From: Nitrosopumilus sp.
GTDB taxonomy: Archaea > Thermoproteota > Nitrososphaeria > Nitrososphaerales > Nitrosopumilaceae
Direction of reading: 5' to 3'
DNA: 64,000 nt
NCBI GenBank assembly: GCA_965205675.1
Contig: OZ242186.1
Span: 384,001 to 448,000, forward strand
Part shown: in pieces, positions 35,343-35,520 of the stretch
Layout of the letters: each line of letters begins with the position of its first letter
Position numbering within the stretch: the first letter of the stretch is position 1
Made by a program: the position numbers and the translations under genes
The notes under the pieces: model-generated
Seen by the model: only the letters and a program-made list of their open reading frames with translations
What the model was told of the DNA's origin: nothing
Database searches by the model: none

Positions 35343-35520
35343 ACCTTAGTGCAAATTTGCACTAAGGTCAACAACTAAACGACATAACAAGACGTTATGA
35401 CCATCAGTCTGGAACGCCCGAAGGGTGTTACGACTGAGGAAGGAACGTCTCAAAATACTCTAATCAAAAACAAAAAAAGGCTAGTTCAAAGACGAACTAA
35501 CTTGACTGTCAAACACTGTT
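35343..35520 (-). ncRNA. Structured non-coding segment (candidate ncRNA or single-strand origin)
   Basis: 26-bp perfect palindrome 35343-35368; long interrupted stem capped by a cUUCGg loop on the minus strand; further short hairpins. Confidence 0.45.

Follow-up and report, generated by a model that had tools for sequence, protein, structure and literature searches.

What is the short structured segment that lies behind the tRNA-like gene of this Nitrosopumilus contig: one RNA, a DNA site, or several things of different origin? A preliminary description of the 64,000-nt stretch analyzed here (the window) had singled out 35343-35520 and favored a minus-strand RNA co-transcribed with the tRNA mimic, with a single-strand origin for lagging-strand priming as the alternative. 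We found that the segment is composed of three separately inherited non-coding modules (M1, M2, and M3) and is unlikely to be one structured RNA. It occupies the inner portion of a non-coding stretch, 35200-35711, the left arm of a 10.2-kb insertion (35200-45424) that is absent from all six syntenic relatives; in their loci the equivalents of 35199 and 45425 are joined, overlapping by 12 nt. Among contigs of four DNA runs compared with the window, one from run X4 likewise lacks the insertion, joining 35187 to 45425 with 12 letters assignable to either side. This presence/absence polymorphism with direct repeats, together with a recombinase near one end, identifies the insertion as a site-specific integrated element, and its target is intergenic. 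Its limits and principal features are:

35188-35199: left direct repeat AGAATTTATATT, 12 bp, att core or target duplication, from the junctions in relatives
35200-35342, minus strand: terminal spacer, G/T-rich on this strand (AT skew up to +0.5, GC skew -0.47)
35712-37484, minus strand: P-loop ATPase of the TraG/VirD4/VirB4 kind, from Pfam and NCBIfam
39541-40650: second non-coding region with iteron-like repeats, candidate Rep-linked origin, from its repeats and its adjacency to rep
40651-42744, minus strand: HUH Rep-like protein, 697 aa, with an N-terminal zinc-ribbon-like Cys cluster, from motifs and structural matches
44310-45377, minus strand: tyrosine integrase, from Pfam, PHROG, and NCBIfam-type matches
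45425-45436: right direct repeat AGAATTTATATT, 12 bp, from the junctions in relatives and the run X4 contig

The integrase lies 47 nt from the right repeat and matches Pfam Phage_integrase (PF00589, 3.2e-8, 34 bits against a cut-off of 27.1) and the PHROG 1 integrase (1.1e-14), with an XerA-like match (9.1e-15) that is below its cut-off. The ATPase matches three Pfam models (TrwB_AAD_bind, 5.4e-7; TraG-D_C, 4.3e-5; T4SS-DNA_transf, 4.7e-5) and NCBIfam VirB4 at 6.2e-8, the last far below the family cut-off. The terminal spacer shows partial homology with two other genomes of the genus, G466 and G468, over 35302-35336 and 35317-35386. Loose contig ends had suggested a 17-nt terminal inverted repeat, but this candidate was found in one locus only and was discarded. 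The host genome is full of IS and MITE copies. Taken by itself, the segment looks like an ordinary mosaic at the end of a mobile element. The left arm contains, from its outer to its inner side:

35343-35368: M3, perfect 26-bp palindrome with arms of 13+13
35389-35451: M2, bulged 63-nt hairpin with an outer stem, a 4x4 internal loop, a middle stem with a bulged base, and an apical stem
35466-35480, minus strand: T7-G-T5 run (35466-35478) after CC, likely transcription stop and end of M1
35482-35499, minus strand: M1 hairpin TAGTTC/GAACTA, the D-arm-like hairpin of an inverted 5'-half copy
35502-35512, minus strand: M1 box TTGACAGTCAA, 11 nt, at the position of the "anti-anticodon-arm" box of the family, orphan here
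35536-35543, minus strand: TATA-like box TTTAATTA, +5 to +12 behind the tRNA-like gene, possible M1 promoter
35548-35619, minus strand: element-borne tRNA-like gene, from ARAGORN and Rfam (RF00005, 47.6 bits)
35653-35696, minus strand: direct degenerate copy of the 5' half of that same gene, with an A-run, a D-arm-like part, and a 16-nt exact copy of the anticodon arm

All of the inverted repeats in the preliminary description are indeed there. The palindrome is 100% matched over its 26 bp, the nested stem GAGACGTT/AACGTCTT (35444-51 / 35389-96) encloses TCAGTC/GACTGA and an apical stem, and the smaller hairpins TAGTTC/GAACTA (35482-87 / 35494-99) and TTGAC/GTCAA (35502-12) were located, as was the enrichment in GC (0.42-0.46 at 35350-35499 versus 0.29-0.34 in the flanks). 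Two statements did not survive. The segment is not free of ORFs, as a 44-aa ATG ORF on the plus strand (35397-35531) overlaps it, and the stretch crossed by this ORF is broken by indels in paralogue B, a second copy of the locus. Nor is there a cUUCGg tetraloop in the minimum-free-energy fold, which gives CCC-UUC-GGG rather than c(UUCG)g. Both strands fold far better than shuffled sequence, the minus strand at -58.5 kcal/mol (z -5.52) and the plus strand at -54.4 kcal/mol (z -7.42), with 0 of 200 shuffles as good in either case. The Rfam scan that had been proposed as a check gave nothing for the segment: with cmscan (Rfam 15) over 34000-37000, at E up to 1, matches were confined to the tRNA-like gene, and at gathering scores the whole window contains three tRNAs and nothing else.

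The idea of a single minus-strand RNA spanning the segment, co-transcribed with the tRNA-like gene and freed by 3' processing, has some appeal. The minus strand can form every one of the hairpins, and each of the four known copies of M2 has a tRNA-like gene upstream of it on the same strand; in G466 and G468, where M1 is missing, M2 begins only 16-20 nt behind the gene, which leaves no room for a separate promoter. However, archaeal RNA polymerase stops at oligo-T, and a T-run stands between the gene and M2 both in the window locus, A (T7-G-T5), and in paralogue B (T6-A-T5). With this run placed between the tRNA-like gene and both M2 and M3, a single transcript across the whole segment is unlikely. 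The parts are also distributed separately, the three modules occurring independently of one another in other genomes and the palindrome being found away from any tRNA-like gene. B shares 35363-35700 with A but has no palindrome, and its M1 and M2 are 57 nt farther apart. Likewise, the UUCG apical loop is not conserved (UUUG in B, replaced by a 25-column insertion in G468), the folding energies show no strand preference, and an Rfam match is lacking. We thus regard the one-RNA reading as decidedly improbable for the segment as a whole. What remains of it concerns only M1 (35466-35547), the part closest to the tRNA-like gene, which does behave like a unit of minus-strand RNA and where a hairpin and a T-run follow the tRNA-like gene at a fixed distance in 11/11 loci examined, and where pairing with the 5' half of that gene is kept by compensatory changes in nine loci.

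The tRNA-like gene is itself peculiar. G3:U70 is the mark of alanine identity, and the gene has an alanine-type acceptor stem (G3:U70, A73) together with a non-alanine anticodon, AAG (Leu). It lacks the long variable arm and differs both from the Leu tRNAs of the genome, which are 86-88 nt long, and from its Ala tRNAs, which have GGGCCGG acceptors. It has the cloverleaf of a canonical tRNA, but its anticodon and identity elements do not agree on one amino acid. Among the matches listed, the family comprises ca. 37 copies of >60 bits in ca. 17 of 151 species-representative genomes of the genus. In 12 aligned sequences, 95.2% of the cloverleaf cells are paired and 11 of 21 pairs have compensatory double changes; G3:U70 is present in 12/12, and the anticodon loops are of Leu, Phe, or Asp type. 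A tmRNA, including the two-piece form, was considered given G3:U70 and the structured flank, but neither ARAGORN nor Rfam at E up to 1 detected one. Members of the family are accompanied by a degenerate copy of their own 5' half, placed either upstream and direct (type I) or downstream and inverted (type II). The conserved 44-nt copy to which the 16-nt repeat of the window (35580-95 / 35655-70) belongs is present in 24 loci, and in these type I loci the match to the gene of the same locus averages 13.0 nt, versus 5.95 across loci. We had considered this 16-nt repeat as a pair of integrase att sites, but the true junctions are elsewhere. Paralogue B is decayed, with a broken acceptor stem and a duplicated 5' half.

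M1 copies the 5' half of a tRNA-like gene in inverted and degenerate form, and consists of the TATA-like box, the 11-nt box, the TAGTTC/GAACTA hairpin, and the T-run. Its layout is conserved: counted from the 3' end of the tRNA-like gene, the hairpin starts at +47 to +51 and the CC plus T-run lies at +68 to +72 in 11/11 loci, and a TATA-like box falls within +5 to +14 in 10 of the 11 (B has one mismatch). The hairpin changes with compensation, to TAGCTC/GAGCTA in locus L137 and to a different stem in L138. Judging from its spacing of ca. 26 nt to the 11-nt box, the TATA-like box could be the promoter for a small RNA from M1. The box position in the nine type II loci is the reverse complement of the anticodon arm of the same locus, with exact runs of 8-15 nt, versus a mean of 5.6 and a maximum of 9 across loci. 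In the window, the longest run complementary to the adjacent gene is 6 nt (4 nt in B), and a search of the genome for a cognate arm of the M1 box found the 11-mer only at A and B themselves. M1 appears here as an orphan because it does not match its neighbor and, with no cognate target in the genome, it may do nothing in this window.

The evidence for RNA pairing comes from the family. For the nine type II loci, RNAalifold predicts 39 pairs between 5' half and trailer, and 22 of these show compensatory changes, so the tRNA-like genes and their 5'-half copies covary. The loci are related, and thus both these counts and the transition counts overstate the number of independent events; moreover, RNAalifold picks G-U-tolerant pairs, which inflates its G-U excess. 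The direction of transitions between the 5' half and its copy is free of this bias, although it rests on local pairwise alignments: wobble-compatible changes outnumber the others 27 to 5 in type II and 45 to 12 in type I loci. Whole transcripts fold at z values of -8.3, -5.3, and -5.0. Compensatory changes and substitutions biased toward G-U together point to RNA pairing. Covarying complementarity to a neighbor, as expected of an antisense RNA, is thus a property of the family and not of the M1 of this window. Matching copies could also be kept by concerted evolution, through template switching or gene conversion, with no pairing of RNAs involved. A full-text search of the openly accessible literature retrieved neither thaumarchaeal element-borne tRNA-like genes nor tRNA-like/antisense pairs.

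Because the substitutions fit the pairing of the tRNA-like RNA with an RNA complementary to the copy, we interpret M1 as a short RNA's gene or its 3' trailer. In this light it resembles a small antisense counterpart to the alanine-type tRNA-like family. Expressed separately, the short RNA would be a minus-strand product of ca. 40 nt, able to pair with a tRNA-like RNA over the latter's anticodon and D arms and ending at the hairpin and a U-run. The copy that matches the adjacent gene is the upstream one (35653-35696), which is why the M1 of the window would have been acquired by recombination, as an orphan.

M2 and M3 lie beyond the T-run of M1. M3 is the only perfect hairpin with arms of at least 11 nt in the window; genome-wide (2.01 Mb) there are 16 such hairpins, versus 4, 4, and 9 in three block-shuffled genomes. 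It was found at four places in 3 of the 151 genomes of the genus, identical (26/26) at three of them despite different flanks and with 2 mismatches at the other. In G468 it occurs with neither M2 nor a tRNA-like gene. M2 has only four copies (A, B, G466, and G468), again in 3 of 151 genomes, by covariance model and by BLAST. Its core is invariant and its internal loops are conserved, the apex is variable, and the outer stem has two compensatory pairs, both in G468. The two strands of M2 fold about equally well; in B the tRNA-sense strand is the better one, in A, G466, and G468 the opposite strand. An 18-mer scan for M2 gave 0 matches in viral_contigs and 11 in metagenome_contigs, which we attribute to chance because none of the 11 has the context of the hairpin. 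Integron attC sites have outer boxes, RYYYAAC ... GTTRRRY, that flank an imperfect hairpin. M2 was rejected as such a site, since its 5' arm ends in GTT and its 3' arm starts with AAC, the reverse order. The crossover repeat of the element (35188-35199) is ca. 190 nt from M2.

In our interpretation, M2 and M3 would be hairpin-forming cis sites acting at the level of DNA or single-stranded DNA, with protein binding and an origin for lagging-strand synthesis or for transfer as candidate roles. Some observations weigh against a DNA-level M2: in G466 and G468 it occupies the position of a 3' trailer, which favors RNA; its strands fold equally well; and the compensatory changes come from one sequence only.

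The single-strand origin proposed earlier acquires some context from the HUH Rep-like protein that the element encodes. Here, M2 and M3 would fold in the displaced strand of an element that replicates by rolling circle or is transferred as a single strand, and would thereby allow lagging-strand synthesis to be primed. In an alignment of 58 sequences of the protein, S99, H138, H154, and H156 are invariant and Y197 and H201 are conserved in at least 90%. The domain model has a beta-alpha-beta-beta topology (pLDDT 86.9), and its best structural matches are SIRV1 ORF119 (Z 6.7), RepB of pMV158 (Z 5.2 and 5.0), and a Helitron (Z 4.9). The HUH assignment combines motifs with middling Z-scores, 6.7 or lower, that are common according to the tool's own warning. 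The full-length 697-aa fold was unusable (pLDDT 41). Neither Pfam nor NCBIfam matched the protein, sequence and profile searches of the PDB gave 0 matches, and Foldseek of the domain model against the PDB gave none at E 0.001 or better; at E up to 0.001 the family counts 1073 cluster representatives, and Pfam has no model for it.

According to the review PMC2440964, rolling-circle elements need a structured single-strand origin distinct from the nick site, and M2 and M3 could supply it. The conserved core and internal loops of M2, with its covarying outer stem and free apex, fit the recognition of a folded single strand better than a duplex dimer site, and the insertion of M1 between gene and M2 would be harmless to a site in DNA. 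The segment also resembles the single-strand origins of rolling-circle plasmids: it is non-coding, measures ca. 150-200 nt, is packed with imperfect hairpins, and belongs to an element that has an HUH Rep-like gene. Unlike those origins, M2 and M3 are unlinked to rep in other genomes. They accompany the side of the tRNA-like gene and the ATPase: the rep module of G468 comes without M2 and M3, and in G466 they come with no rep within ca. 10 kb. Folding does not separate the strands, and the copies of M2 are only four. We consider this origin unlikely, if still worth keeping in mind. The region 39541-40650, by its location next to rep, is the more likely candidate for a Rep-linked origin. It contains a 137-nt tandem repeat and other repeats, part of it (40284-40650) accompanies rep in another genome, and CTTGATA stands directly 3' of the rep stop codon. 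The pC194-type nick motif CTTGAT(A) (PMC2440964, in the portion drawn on here) has no occurrence within 35200-35711.

M2 and M3 might also do nothing for the element, being selfish or decaying palindromic repeats or scars of recombination, with M1 as a dead remnant. Such an outcome would suit a genome rich in IS and MITE copies, a visibly decayed paralogue B, an M1 that has no target here, and modules as rare as M2 and M3; the regions of G466 and G468 that carry M2 or M3 are both broken up by IS elements. Yet the palindrome is identical over 26/26 positions at three places with differing flanks, the outer stem of M2 survives two double changes, and in M1 the TATA-like box, the hairpin, and the T-run are all intact. 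Lack of function seems to us rather doubtful. M2 and M3 may serve as a single-strand origin or as a protein site, or may have no role. The reading that we tentatively prefer, as plausible but short of probable, is that the segment is a three-module mosaic in the left arm of an integrative element, with M1 as an orphan small-RNA unit and M2 and M3 as hairpin cis sites.

The element has relatives of several kinds. The thaumarchaeal cryptic integrated elements of Krupovic et al. 2019 (PMC6563490), as far as the sections used here describe them, are similarly small, with a tyrosine integrase, short direct repeats (median, 17 bp), and in some cases an intergenic target (15/68), and one of them encodes a rolling-circle initiator. 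In those sections tRNA genes figure only as targets and nothing comparable to paired 5'-half copies appears, whereas here tRNA-like genes are carried, together with 5'-half copies. Actinomycete integrative and conjugative elements such as pSAM2 are described, in the part of PMC2440964 that we draw on, as combining an integrase, a rolling-circle Rep, a single DNA-translocating ATPase of the FtsK/TraG kind, and hairpins at the origins. The present element likewise has ca. 10 kb, a site-specific integrase, a predicted rolling-circle-type Rep, and one ATPase; it differs in its archaeal host, its intergenic rather than tRNA target, a predicted Rep that has no Pfam model, and an ATPase that matches VirD4/VirB4 models weakly.

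The putative pair of RNAs has its own parallels. As in plasmid antisense systems, a short RNA that combines a recognition box with a terminator hairpin and a U-tail would be encoded on a mobile element next to its structured RNA target, and covariation keeps the two complementary. Antisense RNA/target pairs of plasmids and type I toxin-antitoxin loci include ColE1 RNA I/RNA II, R1 CopA/CopT, and hok/sok. In contrast to these, the target would be tRNA-shaped and alanine-type rather than an mRNA or a primer, and the partner copies, in degenerate form, the 5' half of the target and has two alternative placements. tRNA-like RNAs outside decoding include the tRNA-like domain of tmRNA, viral tRNA-like structures, and the tRNA-miRNA units of gammaherpesviruses. 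The alanine-type acceptor with G3:U70 is shared with tmRNA, and the order of a tRNA-like unit followed by hairpins with the herpesviral units; unlike tmRNA, the cloverleaf is complete, with an anticodon arm, and a tag reading frame was not found.

A more speculative idea, which we hold to be very doubtful, is that the alanine-type tRNA-like gene and its covarying 5'-half copy form a two-RNA addiction or exclusion module, made entirely of RNA, on Nitrosopumilus mobile elements. The tRNA-shaped RNA would be charged with alanine and potentially mistranslating, because it has anticodon loops of Leu, Phe, or Asp type, and hence harmful; its partner, a short antisense RNA, would cover the anticodon and D arms. 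Under this idea, the M1 found here would be an orphan "antidote" to a competing element's tRNA-like RNA.

With its predicted Rep, the element is an archaeal counterpart of the actinomycete design of integrase, rolling-circle Rep, and single ATPase. Its cargo belongs to a multi-copy family of tRNA-shaped genes on Nitrosopumilus mobile DNA, with an invariant alanine-type acceptor and non-alanine anticodon loops, each gene being shadowed by a degenerate copy of its 5' half that evolves in step with it, through substitutions that point to the pairing of two RNAs. Should the small RNA prove real, archaea would have a new type of RNA-RNA module, and the odd "Leu," "Phe," and "Asp" genes that tRNA finders report in these genomes would be explained.

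All the structures that the preliminary description had listed for positions 35343-35520 were found there, and they are real and non-random. They are set out below with the neighbouring tRNA-like gene and its upstream copy.

35343-35368, perfect palindrome of 26 bp, arms 13+13 (module M3)
35389-35451, 63-nt bulged hairpin with nested stems GAGACGTT/AACGTCTT and TCAGTC/GACTGA and an apical stem (module M2)
35482-35499, TAGTTC/GAACTA hairpin, within module M1 (35466-35547)
35502-35512, TTGAC/GTCAA hairpin, within M1
35548-35619, minus strand, tRNA-like gene
35653-35696, minus strand, copy of the tRNA-like 5' half, starting with an A-run

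On folding, none of 200 dinucleotide shuffles was as good on either strand (minus strand, z = -5.52; plus strand, z = -7.42). The palindrome is among 16 perfect hairpins with arms of at least 11 nt in the 2.01-Mb genome, versus 4, 4 and 9 in block-shuffled genomes. The GC enrichment was also confirmed (0.42-0.46 vs 0.29-0.34 in the flanks). The segment had been described as lacking ORFs, and a 44-aa plus-strand ORF overlaps it. The UUCG tetraloop is only one of two possible registers, and the loop is not conserved. An Rfam scan of the segment returned no family, its sole matches at E up to 1 lying over the neighbouring tRNA-like gene. The reading as a single minus-strand RNA is right only in part. 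What the segment represents is a patchwork, located at one end of an integrated element.

The stretch 35200-45424 is a 10.2-kb insertion, since 35199 is joined straight to 45425, with 12 bases shared, in 6/6 syntenic loci of other genomes of the genus, direct repeats are present at both ends, and a contig from another, unrelated run (X4) has the same empty site. Its main features are as follows.

35188-35199 and 45425-45436, direct repeats AGAATTTATATT, read in the window
39541-40650, non-coding region of 1.1 kb on the downstream side of the rep-like gene
40651-42744, gene of a 697-aa Rep-like protein
47 nt from the right end of the element, tyrosine integrase
within the element, P-loop ATPase with weak TraG/VirD4/VirB4 matches

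With an integrase, a rolling-circle-type Rep and one DNA-translocase-like ATPase in ca. 10 kb, the design resembles the integrative and conjugative elements of actinomycetes (PMC2440964), and also the cryptic integrated elements of Thaumarchaeota (PMC6563490). Host genes in the window include the pst operon and a pterin dehydratase, a content in keeping with an archaeon that oxidises ammonia. The phosphate-uptake cluster pst/phoU (27390-33518) and its flanks (27301-34048) are missing from five of the six relatives' loci examined, with 27300 joined directly to 34049 in four and ca. 20 unmatched bases between them in a fifth (L006), while the sixth (L007) had no match on that side; a second insertion therefore adjoins the 10.2-kb element. 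Insertion sequences and families of short repeats abound in the genome, where units of 130-1300 nt exist in dozens of almost identical copies.

The 697-aa protein has no sequence match in Pfam, NCBIfam, PHROG or PDB. A search at E up to 0.001 gave a family of 1073 cluster representatives, and 32/32 sampled members were without an informative Pfam match. In an alignment of 58 members, Ser99, His138 and His154-x-His156 are invariant, and Tyr197 and His201 are kept in at least 90%; conserved Cys clusters also occur in the family (proteins P0001-P0156). The domain model (pLDDT 86.9) has a beta-alpha-beta-beta-alpha-beta-alpha core, and its best structural matches among 48,161 chains were SIRV1 ORF119 Rep (Z 6.7) and pMV158 RepB (5.2 and 5.0), followed by a Helitron transposase (4.9) and the parvovirus NS1 and AAV Rep nucleases (4.5 and 4.4). 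Since Z-scores in this range are only moderate and many proteins share the fold, we label the protein HUH Rep-like, not proven HUH. The region 39541-40650, which moves together with rep, carries iteron-like repeats. It contains a tandem repeat of 137 nt (96% identical), three occurrences of a 35-nt motif and two AACCTTAAGG palindromes, and CTTGATA stands at 40648, immediately past the rep stop codon. The region is a candidate for the double-strand origin. Of the seven AACCTTA heptamers of the window, five lie inside the element (35342, 36203, 38614, 40063 and 40091), in a set that includes the palindrome arm and both AACCTTAAGG palindromes, a post-hoc observation with a total count not above chance.

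Comparison of the window with a paralogue in the same genome and with copies in two other genomes of the genus (G466 and G468) resolves the segment into the three modules. In the paralogue (L015; contig 1, 540891-541361) the acceptor stem of the tRNA-like gene is broken, with TTACT replacing GGGCC. A second copy of the 5' half lies 35 nt upstream, M1 and M2 follow, and an IS element stands on the other side. M1 is 97% identical between the window and the paralogue, and kindred units stand behind other tRNA-like genes. In both loci it sits between the tRNA-like gene and M2, with 57 extra bases there in the paralogue. M2 exists in only four copies, one in each of these two loci and one each in G466 and G468 (3/151 genomes). 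M3, missing from the paralogue, was found at four places in 3/151 genomes, three of them 26/26 identical with differing flanks; one place adjoins an ATPase gene without a tRNA-like gene and another is in an unrelated context. In sequencing runs X1-X3, contigs with variants of the tRNA-like/hairpin module (window 35268-35700) reach word depths of ca. 1000-2300, vs ca. 9-15 for the element body, and some loop 35695 back to 35519 via 33 letters of other sequence, suggestive of tandem modules in a relative of higher abundance in these samples.

For M2 and M3 the evidence thins. They could be putative sites acting as DNA or single-stranded DNA, the second possibility being close to the single-strand origin proposed in the preliminary description. 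Both lie beyond the T7-G-T5 run of M1 in the window and in the paralogue, the element encodes the HUH Rep-like protein, and rolling-circle elements require a structured single-strand origin (PMC2440964). The middle stem and internal loops of M2 are invariant. G468 has GGUGUU/AACACC in place of the outer-stem GACGUU/AACGUC (two double changes), in the decayed paralogue the outer stem is broken, and the apex varies without constraint, G468 having an insertion of 25 columns there; this pattern suits recognition of a folded single strand, and a perfect palindrome identical across contexts suits a protein site. However, both modules keep company with the tRNA-like/ATPase side and not with rep, next to which 39541-40650 is the better origin candidate. 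Moreover, both strands fold equally well, and M2 in G466 and G468 lies exactly at the 3' trailer position, 16-20 nt after the tRNA-like gene and without M1. In a genome so crowded with IS elements, M2 and M3 may also be functionless repeats.

The tRNA-like gene itself scores 47.6 bits as a tRNA, with anticodon AAG, G3:U70 with A73, and without the long variable arm of the Leu tRNAs of the genome. Relatives are present in other genomes of the genus, and their alignment (n=12) gives a cloverleaf 95.2% paired, with double-sided changes at 11/21 pairs and a covariation score matched by 0/500 shuffles. The acceptor pairs G1-C72, G2-C71, G3-U70 and C4-G69 are invariant, and 5:68 and 6:67 covary. Derivation of the family as copies of the host tRNA-Ala was ruled out because all three host genes read GGGCCGG/CCGGUCC in the acceptor. 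Among the matches listed for the covariance model, ca. 37 copies in ca. 17/151 genomes exceed 60 bits, up to nine per genome; true tRNA-Ala genes score ca. 54 bits. Elsewhere on contig 1 (358055-359062) there is an inverted, 98.5%-identical duplicate of window 35601-36609, holding the tRNA-like 5' 19 nt, the upstream copy and the ATPase 3' end; an IS-like repeat cuts it at the D loop of the tRNA-like sequence.

We compared the trailers of eleven tRNA-like genes: the window locus, the paralogue and nine loci with an inverted downstream copy of their own 5' half (type II). The layout is rigid: a TATA-like TTTAATTA-like box within +5 to +14 (10/11) comes first, then a variable box 11-15 nt long, next a hairpin whose start falls at +47 to +51, and last CC with a T-run at +68 to +72. 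At each type II locus the variable box matches, as reverse complement, the anticodon arm of that locus itself (exact runs of 8-15 nt, vs a cross-locus mean of 5.6 and maximum of 9), and the hairpin is complementary to the D arm, so RNAalifold pairs the entire 5' half to the trailer (22/39 pairs with compensatory changes, and 0/13 broken in the anticodon-arm box). Three predicted transcripts fold at z of -8.3, -5.3 and -5.0. The two small hairpins of M1 are therefore a degenerate copy, in inverted orientation, of the 5' half of a tRNA-like gene. The TATA-like box lies ca. 26 nt ahead of the variable box, the usual archaeal promoter spacing, and M1 may thus be a separate small RNA gene of ca. 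40 nt and not a mere trailer.

In 24 other loci (type I), the window locus included, the 5'-half copy is upstream, in direct orientation, and begins with an A-run. It lies ca. 33 nt from the gene start and co-varies with the D and anticodon arms of its gene (mean exact run 13.0 nt vs 5.95 across loci); on its opposite strand a box, a hairpin and a T-run follow one another, as in a gene for a small antisense RNA. Transcription of the same strand in type II, and of the opposite one in type I, would yield an RNA complementary to the copy that could, with either placement, pair with the tRNA-like RNA. Gene G/copy A or gene T/copy C changes, giving G-U in the duplex, outnumber the reverse, giving A-C (type I, 45 vs 12; type II, 27 vs 5), a direction consistent with RNA pairing. 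These counts, like the others given here, were taken on related sequences and overstate the number of independent events. M1 in the window has no match to its adjacent tRNA-like gene (longest run 6 nt), a search of the genome found no cognate arm, and the arm most like its box is in one of the G466 copies (L120). The window locus and the paralogue are therefore hybrids, each joining a foreign type II unit to a type I gene that has kept the upstream copy of its own 5' half.

Full-text literature searches found no description of such an association, and the supplements of PMC6563490 might list such genes. By these comparisons, the tRNA-proximal third of the segment belongs to a pairing of alanine-type tRNA-like genes with co-varying copies of their own 5' halves, which appears to have been previously unnoticed.
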